Positions 11,856 through 50,170 of a stretch of DNA of 64,000 bases are shown here, one piece after another. This DNA comes from an uncultured Candidatus Saccharibacteria bacterium. GTDB taxonomy: Bacteria > Patescibacteriota > Minisyncoccia > Phycocordibacterales > UBA9973. The translations under genes were made by a program, and so were the position numbers. The DNA lies in assembly GCA_964634365.1 (NCBI GenBank), contig CAZWJU010000001.1, positions 167,028-231,027 on the forward strand, written 5' to 3'. The stretch's first letter is position 1, and each line of letters begins with the position of its first letter. Under the pieces are notes generated by a model. It saw only the letters and a program-made list of their open reading frames with translations, was not told the origin of the DNA and did no database searches.

Positions 11856-12914
11856 ATGATAATAAATATAATCAAAGTATTTATACCAACCACAATAGCA
11901 TTCTTCTTAGGTATAGGGATGACCCCCTTCCTGATGCGTTTTTTTATAAAAAATAGACTTTGGAAAAGACATGCTAGAAGCGACGAATCTATCAACGCAG
12001 ATAAAATTTCTCCAACATTCTCTGCTCTACACAATACAAAAGAAGAGCTCGCCACTCCAAGAATTGGCGGGGTCATAATATGGCTTGCAACACTTGGAAC
12101 GGCGCTCATAATATTTTTGATATCAGTCTTTGTACCAAACGAACTAACAGACAAACTCAATTTTATAAGTAGAAATCAAACCCTACTCTTGTTGTTTGCG
12201 ATGCTTATATCTAGTCTTATAGGTTTAACAGATGACCTACTGACTATTTTTGCCAAACCAGGTGTTTTTGCAAATGGATTTCCTAGAAAATACATGGTCT
12301 CAATCGTCTTGCTTATCGGACTGATTGGTGGTTTGTGGTTTTACTATAAACTTGGAATATCAACCATAGCTATACCTGTTCTAGGGATACTTCCATTTGG
12401 TGTATTCTTCATACCAATATTTATGGCTGTTATATTTGCAGTTTTTTCAAGTGGAGTGATCGATGGCATAGACGGCCTAGCAGGAGGTGTTATGGCAACT
12501 ATATTTGGAGCATACGGAACAATTGCACTTCTACACAATCAAGTTGATATAGCAGTATTTTGCGCTGTTGTAACTGGAGCTATACTATCTTTTTTATGGT
12601 TCAATATTCCTCCAGCAAGATTTTATATGGGGGAGACAGGAATGCTTGGACTCACGGTAACTCTAACTATAGTGGCATTTTTAACAGATACAGTTCTACT
12701 ACTTCCAATAATTGCTTTCCCTCTATTTGCAACAGCACTATCATCAGCAATACAAATATTTTCAAAGAAATATTTCAATAAAAAAATATTCAAAGTTGCA
12801 CCACTGCACCATCACTTTGAAGCGCTCGGATGGTCAAGAGCAAAAATAACAATGAGATACTGGGTAATATCTGTAATATTTGCAATTATAGGAATAGTTC
12901 TATCTCTACTATAA
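11856..12914 (+). CDS. mraY: Phospho-N-acetylmuramoyl-pentapeptide transferase
   Basis: The product is a polytopic membrane protein with the PLHHHFE signature. Confidence 0.9.
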   Translation: MIINIIKVFIPTTIAFFLGIGMTPFLMRFFIKNRLWKRHARSDESINADKISPTFSALHNTKEELATPRIGGVIIWLATLGTALIIFLISVFVPNELTDKLNFISRNQTLLLLFAMLISSLIGLTDDLLTIFAKPGVFANGFPRKYMVSIVLLIGLIGGLWFYYKLGISTIAIPVLGILPFGVFFIPIFMAVIFAVFSSGVIDGIDGLAGGVMATIFGAYGTIALLHNQVDIAVFCAVVTGAILSFLWFNIPPARFYMGETGMLGLTVTLTIVAFLTDTVLLLPIIAFPLFATALSSAIQIFSKKYFNKKIFKVAPLHHHFEALGWSRAKITMRYWVISVIFAIIGIVLSLL

Positions 12915-14032: not shown

Positions 14033-15160
14033 ATGAGAATACTATTTACAGGAGGAGGAACCGGTGGGCACTTTTACCCAATAATCGCAATCGCCGAAGC
14101 ATTGAACAAAATAGCAGATGAAGAAAAGATTTTAAAATCTGAACTTTACTATATGTCTACTGAGCCTTATGACAAACAGGCACTTTTTGAAAACAATATA
14201 AAATTTATACAAGTAAACGCTGGTAAACTTCGTATATATCCTTCTCTTAAAAACATAACTGACATTTTTAAAACAGCAACAGGATGTATGGAGGCTGTTT
14301 TCAAGATATTTGCCCTGTATCCTGATGTGGTCTTTGGTAAAGGTGGTTTTGCTAGTTTCCCAGCATTGTTTGCTGCAAGAATTCTGCGCATACCAGTAGT
14401 TATACATGAATCAGACTCTGCTCCTGGTAGAGTAAACAAATGGGCAAGTAAATTTGCGAAACGTATCGCAATATCTTTCCCAGAAGCCATAGAGTCTTTC
14501 CCAAAAAACAAAACTGCTTGGACAGGTCAGCCTGTTCGCAGAGATATATTGCGAGGAGTAAAAGAAGGTGCACATGAATATTTTGGATTTGATCAAAATA
14601 TCCCTGTAATACTAATCCTAGGAGGTTCACAAGGTGCACAAAAAATAAACAATGCGCTTATAGACGCACTACCTGTTCTCTTGCCAAATTTTCAAATAAT
14701 TCACCAAGTTGGTCCAAAAAATATCGAGGATATTACAGAGACTGCAAACGTAATCATCGCAAACAACGAATTCAAAAAAAGATACAAGCCTATCGGATTC
14801 CTAAGCCCGCTTGCAATAAAAATGGCTGCCGGTGCTGCAAACATAATAGTATCTAGAGCTGGTTCAACTATTTTTGAAATAGCTGGCTGGGGAGTGCCTT
14901 CGATTATAATTCCTTTCGACAAATCAAACGGAGATCATTCTAGAAAAAATGCATACACTTATGCAAGAAGTGGTGCATGTGAAGTAATAGAAGAAACCAA
15001 TCTTTCTCCAAACTTACTCGCTGCAGAAATAACTGCAATAGTAGGGGATAGTACAAAAATAGAAAAAATGAAAAAAGCCGCACAAGATTTTGCACGACCT
15101 GAAGCAGCAAGTTCTATCGCACGAGAAATAATAAATCTAGCACTAAAACACGAACAATAA
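14033..15160 (+). CDS. murG: UDP-GlcNAc:lipid I GlcNAc transferase MurG
   Basis: The product has the GGTGGHFYP motif and a GT28 fold. Confidence 0.9.
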   Translation: MRILFTGGGTGGHFYPIIAIAEALNKIADEEKILKSELYYMSTEPYDKQALFENNIKFIQVNAGKLRIYPSLKNITDIFKTATGCMEAVFKIFALYPDVVFGKGGFASFPALFAARILRIPVVIHESDSAPGRVNKWASKFAKRIAISFPEAIESFPKNKTAWTGQPVRRDILRGVKEGAHEYFGFDQNIPVILILGGSQGAQKINNALIDALPVLLPNFQIIHQVGPKNIEDITETANVIIANNEFKKRYKPIGFLSPLAIKMAAGAANIIVSRAGSTIFEIAGWGVPSIIIPFDKSNGDHSRKNAYTYARSGACEVIEETNLSPNLLAAEITAIVGDSTKIEKMKKAAQDFARPEAASSIAREIINLALKHEQ

Positions 15161-15199
15161 AAAAGCCACCTGATCATATAGTGAGATCGGTGGCTTTTA
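15159..15199. terminator. Bidirectional intrinsic terminator (murG on the plus strand; candidate sRNA on the minus strand)
   Basis: The sequence AAAAAA-gccacctgatcatatagtgagatcggtggc-TTTT forms the terminator. Confidence 0.7.
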
Positions 15200-15298
15200 G
15201 GCATTCGGGTTTTGTTACACCCGAGGGGTACCTCCACTGTCAGTTTACTAAGACACCACAACCGGGAGGGTCGTTGCGGTTCCTGCGCTCAGATCTGT
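15159..15298 (-). ncRNA. Candidate small RNA (GC-rich, ~140 nt) of unknown class
   Basis: A minus-strand promoter TTGACT-17-TGcTACTAT (-35 at 15334..15329, -10 at 15310..15305) precedes a GC-rich segment with hairpin cgggt-gtaacaaa-acccg. The unit ends at the terminator shared with murG. Confidence 0.35.
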
Positions 15299-15374
15299 TT
15301 CCAATATAGTAGCATATTATAAATATTAAGTCAAGTATATTTAAAAAAGCCTTATAATTTGGTATACTTTTCAA

Positions 15375-16817
15375 ATGTCTACACAAAAGAAAGTTGTAAC
15401 TCGTTTTGCTCCAAGTCCAACTGGCTTTATGCATATTGGAGGTGTTCGCACTGCACTTTTTGCATGGGCTTTTGCTCGTAAAAATAACGGTACTTTTATA
15501 TTGCGAATCGAGGACACAGACAAAGCTCGTGAAGTAGAAGGTTCAATCGAACACATAATAAAATCACTGAAGTGGCTTGGTATAAGCTGGGATGAAGGAG
15601 TAGATATAGGAGGTCCGAATGCGCCATACCTACAGTCTGAAAGACTAGACTCTTATAAAAAATACGCACAGATTTTGATTGAAAAAGGTTTAGCTTATGC
15701 AGATCCGTACACAGAGGCAGAAGTAGAAGAGTTCAGAAAAAAATCCGAAGCAGAGAAAAAACCTTTTCTGTTTCGTGACTACAGACCTATAAATCCGCCG
15801 GCTTGGGATGGAACTATGCCACTTCGTCTAAAAGTTACAGATATAAAATCTTATCATTGGACAGATCTGGTAAGGGGCGAGCTTTCTGCTGGACCTGAAG
15901 CAGTCGATGATATTATTTTGATAAAAAGCGATGGATATCCAACATACAATTTCGCTCACATAATAGACGACCTAGAGATGGGTGTAACTCATATTATGCG
16001 CGCCGATGAGTTTATCTCATCGACTCCAAAGTTTTTGTCTATTTATGATGCACTTGGAATTGAGCGCCCTCTATTTGCAACCCTTCCGCCAATTATGTCT
16101 CCAGACGGCAAGAAAAAACTTGGTAAGCGTGATGGAGCAAAAGACATACTAGACTACAAAGAAGAAGGATATTTGCCTGAAGCTATGATAAATTTCCTTG
16201 TCTTTATAGGTTGGAATCCAGGAGATGAGCGCGAGATCATGACACCTGGTGAATTTATAGAAGCTTTTGAAATAGATAAAATTCAAAAATCAGGCGGGGG
16301 ATTCAACATAGAAAAACTAAACTGGATAAATCGCGAGCATATTAAAAAACTAAGTGACGAAGAATTTTTAAATAAAATTCAAGAATACATCCCTGAAAAT
16401 TTTAGAAGTAAAATTGAAAAAAATATTTCTGTTCTTATAAAAGAAAGGGTAGAAAAATTTTCTGATATAAAAAATATGTTTGAAAAAGGGGAATTGGATT
16501 ATTTTTTCGACAGACCAAAATACGACCCAAGCAAGTTGATATTCAAAGACTCTACAAAAGAAAGTATTACTGAAAATCTAAAGCATGGATACGACCTATT
16601 GAACAGTATAGAAGAGAAAAACTTCAATCTAGATTTTATAAAAGATACAATGATGAAAAGTCTAGAAAAAGAAAAGCGCGGACCAACCCTTCACCCTATA
16701 CGCATAGCACTATCTGGACTTGATCAATCCCCAGACCCATTTACCATCTCATCGATATTGGGTAAAAAAGAAACACTAGAACGTATCCAAACTGCAATAG
16801 AATCGCTTGTAAATTAA
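15375..16817 (+). CDS. gltX: Glutamyl-tRNA synthetase
   Basis: The product has PSPTGFMHIGG (HIGH) and KLGKR motifs. A TATAAT -10 lies at about 15353. Confidence 0.9.
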   Translation: MSTQKKVVTRFAPSPTGFMHIGGVRTALFAWAFARKNNGTFILRIEDTDKAREVEGSIEHIIKSLKWLGISWDEGVDIGGPNAPYLQSERLDSYKKYAQILIEKGLAYADPYTEAEVEEFRKKSEAEKKPFLFRDYRPINPPAWDGTMPLRLKVTDIKSYHWTDLVRGELSAGPEAVDDIILIKSDGYPTYNFAHIIDDLEMGVTHIMRADEFISSTPKFLSIYDALGIERPLFATLPPIMSPDGKKKLGKRDGAKDILDYKEEGYLPEAMINFLVFIGWNPGDEREIMTPGEFIEAFEIDKIQKSGGGFNIEKLNWINREHIKKLSDEEFLNKIQEYIPENFRSKIEKNISVLIKERVEKFSDIKNMFEKGELDYFFDRPKYDPSKLIFKDSTKESITENLKHGYDLLNSIEEKNFNLDFIKDTMMKSLEKEKRGPTLHPIRIALSGLDQSPDPFTISSILGKKETLERIQTAIESLVN

Positions 16818-25750: not shown

Positions 25751-26161
25751 CTAAGAAAATATTTTAACTATCCAGTAGTAAATAAAAGTTGTAATAGCAA
25801 ATAAAACTCCTCCCCAAATAGTATCTACTAGAAGTATAGACTTTGGCCAATTCAGCAAAATTGCATAGTTTGTAAATTCATAAACAGCATAGACCAAAAC
25901 ACCAAACATAAAAGCAGATAGCAGTGCAGGACTCAGTCCCTTACTAGAAATAATAGGTGCAATAAAATATGCAAAAGACAAAGCTAGCGCTATGTATACA
26001 ACTAGCGCAGCGCCCATGTGTGTAGACAAAACCCCGTCTTTCATACGAGCAATCGGAGAAAGTGCGTTAGTATAAAAACCTTTCATCAAAACCCCTATCC
26101 AAAGATAATCCAAGCCGATCATTATGATAAATGAACCTAAAAATGAATATATGTATTGCAT
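25751..26161 (-). CDS. Integral membrane protein (DUF2177-like)
   Basis: The product has four TM helices and abuts rsmI. Confidence 0.55.
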   Translation of the reverse strand: MQYIYSFLGSFIIMIGLDYLWIGVLMKGFYTNALSPIARMKDGVLSTHMGAALVVYIALALSFAYFIAPIISSKGLSPALLSAFMFGVLVYAVYEFTNYAILLNWPKSILLVDTIWGGVLFAITTFIYYWIVKIFS

Positions 26162-26210
26162 GGATTTATTTTAACAAAAAACAACCCAAATTATAAGTAT
26201 TTTTAGATAC

Positions 26211-26239
26211 TTGACAAATGCATATAAATATGCTATACT
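26211..26239 (+). promoter_or_regulatory. Consensus promoter TTGACA-17-TGcTATACT (extended -10)
   Basis: The sequence ttgacaaatgcatataaatatgctatact matches the consensus exactly. Confidence 0.6.
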
Positions 26240-26245
26240 TCTTCT

Positions 26246-26385
26246 AGATGTTTAACACACCGGTTCATATCTATCTTTGTCGTTGGGACTTTGAGCTGTA
26301 GCTCACCCCAACTTCATGGAGAGGCCTAAGAAACCTCTCGTCAACTCACGGCTGCCCGATCAAAAGGGCGGCTTTGTTTTTATTT
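26246..26385 (+). ncRNA. Candidate small RNA 1 (~140 nt), unknown class
   Basis: The unit has its own consensus promoter, a nested hairpin gttggg..gagct-gt-agctc..cccaac, a hairpin gagagg-cctaagaaa-cctctc, and an intrinsic terminator ggctgccc-gatcaaaa-gggcggc plus a T-tract. There is no plausible ORF. Confidence 0.45.
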
Positions 26386-26398
26386 AAAATTAGTATAC

Positions 26399-26427
26399 TT
26401 GACAAATAAATACTAATATGCTATGAT
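26399..26427 (+). promoter_or_regulatory. Consensus promoter TTGACA-17-TGcTATGAT (extended -10)
   Basis: The sequence ttgacaaataaatactaatatgctatgat matches the consensus. Confidence 0.6.
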
Positions 26428-26433
26428 ATAGGC

Positions 26434-26555
26434 ATACTCGTACAAATGAACGCGAACATAAAATGCCGTGGACCCACAGTCTCGGCAAAAAACCTAGAGG
26501 GATAAAACCCTCAATCGACTCACAGCTATCCCGTAAGATGGCTGTGTTTTTTTAT
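26434..26555 (+). ncRNA. Candidate small RNA 2 (~120 nt), paralog of sRNA 1
   Basis: It shares the 3' architecture of sRNA 1: hairpin gaggg-ataaaa-ccctc, then tcgactcacagct, then terminator cagctatc-ccgtaa-gatggctg plus T8. Its T-tract overlaps the stop of convergent trhO. Confidence 0.45.
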
Positions 26556-27445
26556 TTAGCCAAAACTTTTTCAGTTTTTTTAGACAGACAGTCTTCCGAG
26601 CAAAACCCTTCCCCATTTTCTGTTAGACAATTTTCACAACATATAAAATGTTTGTGACAAAGTAGGTTCCCGCAGTTCACATAATTTTCTGAAGTGCTGC
26701 CACAGTTGTCACACTTTCCTATTGCCTCATGACTGTCGCCATCGAAGTGCATTACTTTTCTTTTATCAAAAACATAGAGGCTTCCTTTGAAATTTTCTCC
26801 TGGATATTTTTCCATATAACTTACTATTCCTCCATCGAGCTGATACACATCTTCAAATCCAACTTTCTTCAAAAATCCTGATGCCTTTTCGCATCGCACT
26901 CCACCAGTACATACTGTTAGTACAGTTTTGTCTTTTAGATCTTTGAGCTCATCTACCTTTTCTCGTAAGTCACGAAAATTTTCAAGCCCTGGGAAAATAG
27001 TTCCTTCGAACTTTCCACTTTTAAGCTCGTAGTCATTTCTCATATCAACAATATAAAAATCTTTGTTTTCTTCATACCATTTTTTCAAATCTTCTGGCTT
27101 CAATCTTTTACCAGTGAGCTTGTTTGGGTTTATGTCACCCTCTTTACCTAAATGCAGAGAGACTATCTCGTCGCGCACTTTCACAGACAGTCTAGGAAAA
27201 GCATCGCCAGTCCCCTCACTTCTCTTCCAGTGAATATCGGAAAAACCCCGGCGCTTACTCATCCAAGTTACGTATTTTTCTATATTTTCACTCTCACCTT
27301 CAAGCGTAGCGTTGATACCCTCTTCTGCTACTATAGTGCGTCCAGTAAGCCCTAAAACCTCGCATATACCCCTCTGCATACCCATTTCAACCTTAGGGTC
27401 CTTGATTTTAGTGTATTTGTAAAAAAGTAAAACTGTATATTTCAT
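26552..27445 (-). CDS. trhO: tRNA uridine(34) hydroxylase, rhodanese-domain protein (UPF0176/YceA family)
   Basis: The product has LLFYKY and GINATL motifs, a rhodanese CTGGVRCE active site and a C-terminal Cys-rich tail. Confidence 0.8.
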   Translation of the reverse strand: MKYTVLLFYKYTKIKDPKVEMGMQRGICEVLGLTGRTIVAEEGINATLEGESENIEKYVTWMSKRRGFSDIHWKRSEGTGDAFPRLSVKVRDEIVSLHLGKEGDINPNKLTGKRLKPEDLKKWYEENKDFYIVDMRNDYELKSGKFEGTIFPGLENFRDLREKVDELKDLKDKTVLTVCTGGVRCEKASGFLKKVGFEDVYQLDGGIVSYMEKYPGENFKGSLYVFDKRKVMHFDGDSHEAIGKCDNCGSTSENYVNCGNLLCHKHFICCENCLTENGEGFCSEDCLSKKTEKVLAK

Positions 27446-37937: not shown

Positions 37938-38065
37938 ATATAATTTACTCGTCGTCACTCGTAAATTTCTGCGATCCCGCCTCGCGATTTTGTGTGCTCA
38001 CAAAATATCGCTCCGGCTCTCACTACGGTCAAAAAATTAAAGAAGTTTAATTTTTTGACTCTCAG

Positions 38066-38137
38066 TGAGCGTGGATGGAATCGGACCATCGACCTCTGTC
38101 TTATCAGGACAGCGTTCTACCACTGAACTACACGCTC
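38066..38137 (-). tRNA. tRNA-Ile (anticodon GAU), CCA not encoded
   Basis: The reverse-complement folds as a cloverleaf: acceptor GAGCGTG/CACGCTC, D arm GTTC..GAAC, anticodon stem CTGTC/GACAG with loop CTGATAA, and T arm GATGG-TTCGATT-CCATC. An upstream TTGCTA-17-TGcTATAGT promoter lies at about 38190..38220. Confidence 0.85.
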
Positions 38138-49717: not shown

Positions 49718-50160
49718 TGTCCTTGGTCTATTTTTATAATTCTGCGAACATGACGCTCGTCGCCTGAAAAAGGCCTCTCTAACCACAGACGCACTGCTTC
49801 CATAACCTCACTTTCTAGTACCATTCGAGCTCCGATAGATAAAACATTTGAATCATTGTGTTCTCGTGATAGAGCTATGATATCAAGAGCGCCTCCATAA
49901 TACACACATGCTCTGACACCCTCTATGCGGTTCGCAACTATTGCCTCACCTTCTCCAGAACCACCAAGTACTATGCCTCGCGCTCCGCTTTCACCAGCCA
50001 CAGCGAGTGCTACTGGTCGACAAAAATCTGGATAATCATCTGCTGAATCGTAAACATGCGCACCAAGATCAACCGCCTCGTGACCAAGTGATTCTATAAA
50101 TGGCTTCAGCTTCTCTTTTAGTTCAAACCCTGCATGATCTGTTCCTAAGTATATTTTCAT
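49714..50160 (-). CDS. rpiB: Ribose-5-phosphate isomerase B
   Basis: The product begins MKIYLGTDHAGFELK. Confidence 0.9.
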   Translation of the reverse strand: MKIYLGTDHAGFELKEKLKPFIESLGHEAVDLGAHVYDSADDYPDFCRPVALAVAGESGARGIVLGGSGEGEAIVANRIEGVRACVYYGGALDIIALSREHNDSNVLSIGARMVLESEVMEAVRLWLERPFSGDERHVRRIIKIDQGQ

Positions 50161-50170
50161 GTCTATATTT

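Follow-up and report, generated by a model that had tools for sequence, protein, structure and literature searches.

Two tandem small transcription units beside trhO in a Nomurabacteria-related genome as candidate mini-mRNAs for short cysteine-containing peptides

Between the start of a minus-strand gene for a DUF2177 membrane protein (25751-26161, PF09945) and the stop codon (26552-26554) of the convergent gene trhO (26552-27445), a 390-bp spacer (26162-26551) in contig CAZWJU010000001.1 holds two tandem transcription units on the plus strand, here called unit 1 and unit 2. The window, by which we mean the whole 64,000-nucleotide stretch that was analysed, has TrhO relatives among the Patescibacteria/Paceibacterota, near Candidatus Nomurabacteria of the candidate phyla radiation. 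With a little better than even confidence, we read the units as two single-gene mini-mRNAs for Cys-containing peptides of 11-21 residues, possibly with a dual function. Their promoter and terminator anatomy, their conservation in relatives, and an intact open reading frame (ORF) with a coding-type pattern of substitutions and of insertions and deletions (indels) can be read directly from the aligned DNA. A first-pass annotation had already delimited this spacer and recognised in it two tandem paralogous units with consensus promoters and intrinsic terminators, all of which are present and are conserved in relatives. Its further proposal, that the units are purely non-coding stable small RNAs (sRNAs), is not supported as stated: mini-ORFs opening with ATG stand at or near the predicted transcription starts, and that of unit 2 is intact in all eight distinct homologues.

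Promoters, terminators and a shared 3′ module

Each unit begins with a sigma-70-like promoter on the plus strand. The unit 1 promoter (26211-26239) has the -35 hexamer TTGACA at 26211-26216, a 17-nt spacer and the extended -10 element TGcTATACT (hexamer 26234-26239), and the unit 2 promoter (26399-26427) has TTGACA at 26399-26404, again a 17-nt spacer, and the extended -10 element TGcTATGAT (hexamer 26422-26427). The exact pattern TTGACA-N17-TATNNT occurs at only these two sites in 64 kb, both with the extended -10 TG and 188 bp apart, and shuffled sequences hold 0.37 such sites on average, with two sites reached in 1 of 100 shuffles. With 11 of 12 matches each, the two promoters are also the top-scoring sigma-70-like sites in 20 kb. 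The likeness previously drawn to the promoter of the tRNA-Ile gene is a partial one, as the site there reads TTGCTA-17-TGnTATAGT and matches at 9 of 12 positions. The opposite strand carries a divergent TTGTCA-16-TATAAT site at 26217-26190, facing the DUF2177 gene, and besides this no promoter-terminator unit.

In each unit, an intrinsic terminator follows the promoter after 110-140 nt, and the two terminators, G+C-rich hairpins that run into T-tracts, rank first and third among terminator-like sites. In unit 1 a spacer, the motif ACUCAC (26344-26349), the terminator stem-loop (26350-26373) and a T-tract together span 26341-26381 of the plus strand. The corresponding segment of unit 2 spans 26516-26553, also on the plus strand, with ACUCAC at 26518-26523, the stem-loop at 26521-26546 and a T7 tract that abuts or overlaps the trhO stop codon. 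An alignment of unit 1 with unit 2 covers the promoter and a 3′ module that consists of a purine-rich/pyrimidine-rich hairpin, 7-8 nt, the motif ACUC[AG][CU] and the intrinsic terminator. This module is found in 11 of 11 folded sequences, which include unit 2 and two forms of unit 1 (types A and B, described below), and its stems differ among them; the shared 3′ architecture that had been proposed for the pair is real and recurs in all relatives. The spacer bears no annotated gene in any fetched contig, including the complete genome CP064973.1.

A conserved mini-ORF in unit 2

Homologues were sought with nhmmer, using single sequences and profiles, in two sets of loci: 65 around trhO, taken from GTDB species genomes, and 31 around DUF2177, taken from JGI metagenomes. 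Of these, L065 alone carried a unit. Further contigs (L097-L121), including the complete 705-kb genome CP064973.1 (L099), were obtained through exact-protein look-ups of close TrhO and DUF2177 relatives. For unit 2, the comparison set comprises 27 contigs that amount to 8 distinct sequences. The -35 element, the spacing and the TGn extended -10 of unit 2 are present in all eight variants, and the layout of the unit 1 promoter is conserved in L099-L103.

Unit 2 contains a mini-ORF of 19 codons plus stop (26446-26505, plus strand). Its ATG lies 18 nt past the -10 hexamer, which would give an A-rich leader of ~12 nt without a Shine-Dalgarno (SD) motif, and its TAA stop falls in the loop of hairpin 2. 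The predicted peptide is MNANIKCRGPTVSAKNLEG in the window, MNANIKCRGPTVSAKNPEG in L101, MNANINCRGPTIPPKKLKG in L100, MNVYVKKCRGPTISAKNLEE in L097, MKAYIKCRGPTIPAKNLEG in L065, MKAYEKCRGPTVSAKNNLEE in L099, MDAYIKCRGPTIPPKNQEG in L102 and MNESIKCRGPTIPAENHLLEE in the L104 group. These peptides of 19-21 residues are basic and share an invariant CRGPT core, and the ATG, the frame and the position of the stop (TAA or TGA) are conserved in all eight distinct homologues.

The pattern of change within this ORF is largely of the coding type. Three independent indels keep the frame (+3 in L097, +3 in L099 and +6 in the L104 group), whereas those outside the ORF, of 2 nt in L065 and 1 nt in L102, are not multiples of three. 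At least 33 substitution events have left the ORF undisrupted, when 11% of possible substitutions would disrupt it (P ~0.02); taken together with the indels at (1/3)^3, and allowing for three frames, the joint chance of such an intact ORF is on the order of 1e-3. The ratio of nonsynonymous to synonymous polymorphism (pN/pS) is 0.42 over the whole ORF and 0.17 in the KCRGPT core, and the Arg codon is found in the synonymous forms CGT, CGC and CGA.

Two other frames in this region were considered. The 64-aa ORF at 26463-26657, which the first-pass annotation had listed as the only long one, does exist and was rejected as a gene, since its ATG is CTG in L100 and its frame is shifted in L065 and L102. 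At 26485-26492, in the zero frame of the unit 2 ORF and 3 nt before hairpin 2, the window also has A_AAA_AAC, a canonical -1 slippery heptamer. Programmed -1 frameshifting was rejected, as the commonest variant has A GAA AAT in place of an unbroken heptamer and the -1 frame ends at no conserved point; the heptamer is probably just A-rich sequence.

Translation starts without SD motifs

It had been held against a coding role that no SD-led ORF fits either unit. The statement is literally true, and it carries no information in this genome: in a survey of the 52 window ORFs of at least 150 aa, an SD-like motif was found upstream of just 3, and the other 49 lack one. In the same ORFs, -10-like hexamers peak exactly 6 nt before the start codon (9 genes at 6 nt, and 18 of the 52 at 6-10 nt), with the DUF2177 gene and trhO both among the genes that have such a hexamer at 6-10 nt. 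Because SD motifs are this rare and -10 boxes peak 6 nt before starts, the organism can be predicted to initiate translation without SD motifs, often on leaderless mRNAs, which appear to be the usual form for the first genes of operons. The scarcity of SD motifs agrees with a published survey of 16S rRNA that found the anti-SD motif missing from a subgroup of Parcubacteria (PMC9297842). The window does not include a 16S rRNA gene; for the lineage, the published data suggest that the motif may be lost (PMC9297842). The practical lesson is that in such genomes a missing SD motif is no ground for calling an intergenic transcript non-coding.

A shorter and more variable mini-ORF in unit 1

Unit 1 contains a mini-ORF of 17 codons plus stop (26248-26301, plus strand; MFNTPVHIYLCRWDFEL), whose ATG sits 8 nt past the -10 hexamer in type A and type B alike. 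This spacing falls in the 6-10 nt range of other genes here and predicts an mRNA with at most a minimal leader, its AUG within ~2 nt of the start. Type A is present in the window, L100, L101 and L103, with the peptide MFNRPVHISICRWDFEL in L101 and L103, and the very different type B of L099 and L102 has an 11-codon ORF, MKKCSLLYRCL. When the types are aligned, the ATG and the CUGUAR stop coincide, with gaps of 3 and 15 nt and ORF lengths that differ by 18 nt. The start, frame and stop are kept in five of five sequences, with ATG and stop aligned across both sub-clades (defined below). The coding evidence for unit 1 is weaker than that for unit 2. An alternative 23-aa ORF at 26316-26387 was rejected, its ATG being CTG in L101.

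The end of the unit 1 ORF is enclosed by a nested hairpin (GUUGGG..GAGC-UGUA-GCUC..CCCAAC, 26283-26312, plus strand), with the TAG stop placed in the loop of the inner hairpin. L099 and L102 carry another stem (AGGUGU/ACACCU) around an identical CUGUAA loop, and a stop codon in a hairpin loop is found in every type, that is, in unit 2 and in types A and B of unit 1. Downstream lies hairpin 2 of unit 1 (GAGAGG-CCUAAGAAA-CCUCUC, 26319-26339, plus strand), the first element of the shared 3′ module, which is swapped for GGAA-GAAA-UUCC in L099 and L102.

A comparison of the 390-bp spacer between the window and L101 places 6 of 14 differences within 18 nt (26258-26275), which correspond to codons 4-10 of the unit 1 ORF. 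Over 5.9 kb the two strains share 96.7% identity, and the DNA around this patch is ~1% diverged. A local hypervariable spot and a small recombination patch are two candidate origins.

RNA-level constraint and the non-coding reading

The hairpins quoted in the first-pass annotation are all predicted, with folding z-scores of -2.85 for unit 1 and -4.28 for unit 2. In unit 2, hairpin 1 (UGCCG-U-GGAC CCACA GUCU-CGGCA, 26464-26487, plus strand) lies within the ORF and hairpin 2 (GAGGG-AUAAAA-CCCUC, 26497-26512, plus strand) contains its stop. The units are conserved in relatives, as the same annotation had asked to be checked, and compensatory changes are found in the terminator only. Over 7 distinct sequences, the pairing of the unit 2 terminator is complete (100%) and includes two pairs with changes on both sides, whereas hairpins 1 and 2 are 90% and 86% paired and have no pair changed on both sides. 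Unpaired cells occur in 2 of 9 pairs of hairpin 1 and 3 of 5 pairs of hairpin 2, and C-G pairs of hairpin 1 are broken in 2 of 7 and 4 of 7 sequences. The 5′ hairpins, which had been taken as a sign of a structured RNA, lack compensatory change, and some substitutions break them.

A real but lesser possibility is that the units are purely non-coding trans-acting sRNAs, in which an unstructured 5′ region pairs with mRNAs, the hairpins and 3′ module act as a scaffold, and the ORFs are incidental. Such RNAs would be expected to have what is seen here, namely the strongest promoters of the window, discrete predicted transcripts that end at terminators, and folding energies below those of shuffled sequences (z = -2.5 to -4.3 over the sequences). 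A further strongly promoted and terminated unit in the window (15155-15334, minus strand) has no ATG near its predicted start, which suggests that such RNAs may exist in this organism. Several details of the two units likewise weigh against the peptide reading. The 3′ module is kept across paralogues even outside an ORF: unit 1, where hairpin 2 and the ACUC[AG][CU] motif are non-coding, conserves both. The site of hairpin 1 in unit 2 stays folded despite substitutions, in L100 and L102 through a register shift, and codons 12-14 vary at their first positions (S/P, A/P, V/I) with third positions fixed; this combination looks like constraint at the RNA level. Variable sites in the unit 2 ORF are distributed 10:6:11 over codon positions, a weak third-position bias, and the share of variable columns is 35% in the ORF and 34% in the 3′ untranslated part. 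All eight distinct unit 2 sequences come from one narrow clade, the peptides of unit 1 and unit 2 have little in common beyond Cys-Arg, and neither matches a known family, with no hit in Pfam, NCBIfam or PDB at E values up to 10. In L101 and L103, a 9-bp stem can form between the AUG region and the altered 5′ patch of unit 1, and such a stem would hinder leaderless translation.

Against a purely non-coding role stands the coding record of unit 2 set out above: an ORF intact in eight of eight sequences, three in-frame indels, three synonymous Arg codons and a pN/pS of 0.42, with a joint chance of ~1e-3. Hairpins 1 and 2, which would form the scaffold, have several broken pairs and no compensatory changes. 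The most variable part is the 5′ region directly after the conserved GUACAAAUG, which would be unusual for a seed, and within the 64-kb window no above-chance complement was found to the invariant UGCCGYGGACCCAC. There is also no Rfam match. We conclude that some RNA-level constraint coexists with coding constraint, and because of it a dual-function transcript is included in the peptide-coding explanation that we prefer.

Convergent transcription and attenuation

On the minus strand, the complement of unit 2 hairpin 2 (26497-26512) followed by the A-run (26486-26496) reads as an intrinsic terminator for the convergent trhO gene. If trhO ends there, its 3′ untranslated region would be complementary to ~55 nt at the 3′ end of the unit 2 RNA.

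It could be supposed from this arrangement that the units are a cis-antisense or terminator module, which ends and insulates convergent transcription, with a unit 2 RNA that may pair with the 3′ end of the trhO mRNA and with the hairpin 2 complement and A-run as the trhO terminator. The minus-strand sequence GAGGGUUUUAUCCCUC followed by UAGGUUUUUU, directly downstream of trhO, scored as terminator-like, the trhO stop codon is abutted by the unit 2 T-tract, and the A-run and hairpin 2 are retained in most variants. We nevertheless consider this improbable as an account of the units, as in L065 and L111 unit 2 is unchanged beside a different convergent neighbour gene, and the A-run is interrupted in the L104 group, the commonest variant. 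It would leave unexplained the consensus promoters, the conserved ATG and ORF, and the whole of unit 1, in which the opposite strand at hairpin 2 lacks a U-run.

The order of short ORF, hairpins and terminator also recalls leader-peptide attenuators or ribosome-arrest sensors, in which translation of the mini-ORF controls read-through of the terminator. In the window, GGGAUA of hairpin 2 can pair with UAUCCC of the terminator, and the RGP or W..D motifs of the mini-ORFs may resemble those of SecM and TnaC. Even so, this is the least credible of the alternatives and a very improbable one. Neither terminator leads into a same-strand gene; past the first comes the promoter of unit 2, past the second the end of the convergent gene, and a same-strand downstream gene is also missing in L065, L097 and L104. 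By inspection, the GGGAUA/UAUCCC antiterminator pairing is lost in L097, L065 and L102, and no run of regulatory codons is present. Between the stop codon and the terminator stem lie 18 nt, probably too long a distance for a terminating ribosome to bridge, given the usual size of a ribosome footprint.

Distribution and loss of unit 1

Matches by nhmmer were limited to close relatives, with TrhO identities of ~78% or more, and in relatives with TrhO identities of 71% or less other genes adjoin trhO and no equivalent spacer is found. On this evidence, the units are limited to a single narrow clade of Nomurabacteria. No match came from pattern scans of viral contigs, and a six-frame search of all loci for CRGP-like motifs returned family members only.

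Two sub-clades were defined by which of two types of unit 2 promoter spacer a sequence has. All members retain unit 2. L097/L098, L065/L111 and the 16-contig L104 group, which make up three of the eight unit 2 variants, lack unit 1. In L097/L098, the DNA that elsewhere precedes the unit 1 promoter leads directly into the unit 2 promoter spacer, a junction that fits deletion or recombination between the repeated ATACTTGACAA promoter segments and would illustrate that direct repeats of promoters can mediate gene loss. Because both sub-clades include members with unit 1 and members without it, this unit is probably ancestral and was lost more than once. By this comparison, unit 2 appears to be the conserved core gene and unit 1 a dispensable paralogue.

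Searches against known families

At gathering thresholds, a scan of the whole window against Rfam returned the tRNA-Ile gene only, and a permissive scan of 26100-26700 gave chance-level matches, the best at 22.5 bits against gathering scores of 37-117. ARAGORN placed no tRNA or tmRNA at the units and found only tRNA-Ile (38065-38137) in the window. The covariance-model scan and ARAGORN bear out the earlier impression, formed by eye, that the units lack signatures of tRNA, SRP, 6S, tmRNA and RNase P.

Two peptide classes were also considered. A precursor of a ribosomally synthesised and post-translationally modified peptide is unsupported, as the complete genome CP064973.1 has no radical-SAM or other maturase in the 10 kb to each side, a neighbourhood that contains ATP synthase, prs, trhO, DUF2177, rsmI, DUF4015, S41 peptidase and ribosomal protein genes. 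A type I toxin was rejected, since the peptides are polar or basic and, apart from the divergent site that faces DUF2177, no promoter-terminator unit lies on the opposite strand.

Other features of the window and its relatives

The third promoted and terminated unit mentioned above (~145 nt) lies between murG (14033-15160) and gltX (15375-16817). Its promoter reads TTGACT-17-TGCTACTAT, and its terminator is GCCACC..GGUGGC followed by a U-run. It has no same-strand downstream gene, its folding z-score is -3.3, and a possible CCCUCC/GGAGG pairing is visible. No Rfam match and no homologue in the fetched loci were found for it. A weak, sub-threshold match to Phe_leader at 15156-15285 has no bearing on units 1 and 2. 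This unit is a better candidate for a true sRNA than either of them.

Two gaps of ~400 bp in the greedy list of ORFs of at least 70 aa (12161-12559 and 49787-50170) do not look by eye like AT-rich spacer and may be missed or frame-shifted genes or genes with unusual starts. In two more distant relatives (L014, 4116-4200; L019, 1388-1450), consensus extended -10 promoters stand just past trhO, and a short hairpin, a U-run and a same-strand ORF come after them. These proved to be ordinary mRNA promoters for that ORF, and the short hairpin could belong to a short leader or attenuator.

Discussion

The analysis suggests how two overlooked candidate mini-genes might be expressed. From each unit, a near-consensus sigma-70 promoter with an extended -10 element would drive a transcript of ~105-135 nt. 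That of unit 1 would be a leaderless mRNA for the 17-residue peptide, with an 11-residue version in the sister sub-clade, and that of unit 2 would carry its ~12-nt A-rich leader and encode a basic peptide of 19-21 residues with a Cys-Arg-Gly-Pro-Thr core. Translation would begin without an SD motif, as is predicted for nearly every gene of the organism, and the ribosome would reach the stop codon within a small hairpin loop. The shared 3′ module downstream would then end transcription and probably stabilise the short RNA, and the complement of the unit 2 module may also terminate trhO. We infer in this scheme that the units are transcribed from the predicted start sites and translated, and that the peptides may be active; from their charge, one might guess at a soluble partner.

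A bolder proposal, to which we attach little confidence, casts the units as founders of a lineage-specific and so far undescribed class of dual-function mini-transcripts, highly expressed in bacteria of the candidate phyla radiation. Each member of this speculative class would be leaderless or almost so, would encode a cysteine peptide of 11-21 residues and would also carry a functional RNA scaffold, made up of the hairpin loop with the stop codon, a purine/pyrimidine hairpin and an ACUC[AG][CU]-terminator module. In such a class, the clustered 5′ changes of unit 1 between two close strains might reflect a fast change in the specificity for a target or partner.

Bacteria of the candidate phyla radiation have tiny genomes, and their lineage-specific biology is mostly uncharacterised. 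Here, the two strongest promoters in 64 kb drive predicted transcripts that standard annotation overlooks. If the peptides are made, they would be among the shortest conserved bacterial gene products and a clean example of the SD-independent or leaderless expression of mini-genes. The impact of the finding is limited by the very narrow distribution of the units.

Comparison with known systems

Tandem type I toxin genes, such as Ibs/Sib and Ldr/Rdl, offer one point of comparison. Like the units described here, they have tiny ORFs (~18-35 codons) and occur as intergenic tandem paralogues with structured mRNAs. In contrast to them, the unit 2 peptide is hydrophilic or basic, the others are too short or polar to span a membrane, and no antisense RNA gene is evident. 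Leaders of amino-acid operons (among them Rfam Phe_leader and His_leader) resemble the units in having a short ORF that stops in or close to a hairpin and an intrinsic terminator downstream, and differ from them in the same-strand downstream gene, conserved antiterminator pairing, regulatory codon run and Rfam match that the units lack. Classical trans-acting sRNAs of the Hfq or ProQ type, which have a conserved 3′ terminator module, share with the units a strong promoter, a length of ~120 nt, an unstructured 5′ part and 3′ hairpins that run into a U-tail. In the units, however, the most conserved segment lies inside an ORF with synonymous-type variation, and the region after the AUG varies.

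The closest counterparts in kind are small-protein mRNAs and dual-function sRNAs, with SgrS/SgrT, RNAIII/hld and SR1/SR1P as examples. Both groups are reviewed in PMC12612679. The ORFs of the units are much shorter (11-21 codons) than those of such RNAs and are leaderless or preceded by a 12-nt leader without an SD motif, and the units, limited to one Nomurabacteria clade, have no sequence or family relationship to them. What they share with these RNAs is a short independent transcript with an intrinsic terminator, an sRNA-like appearance combined with a conserved small ORF, and signs of coding and RNA-level constraint together. In kind, the two units, which match no known family, belong to the already known category of small-ORF or dual-function small transcripts.

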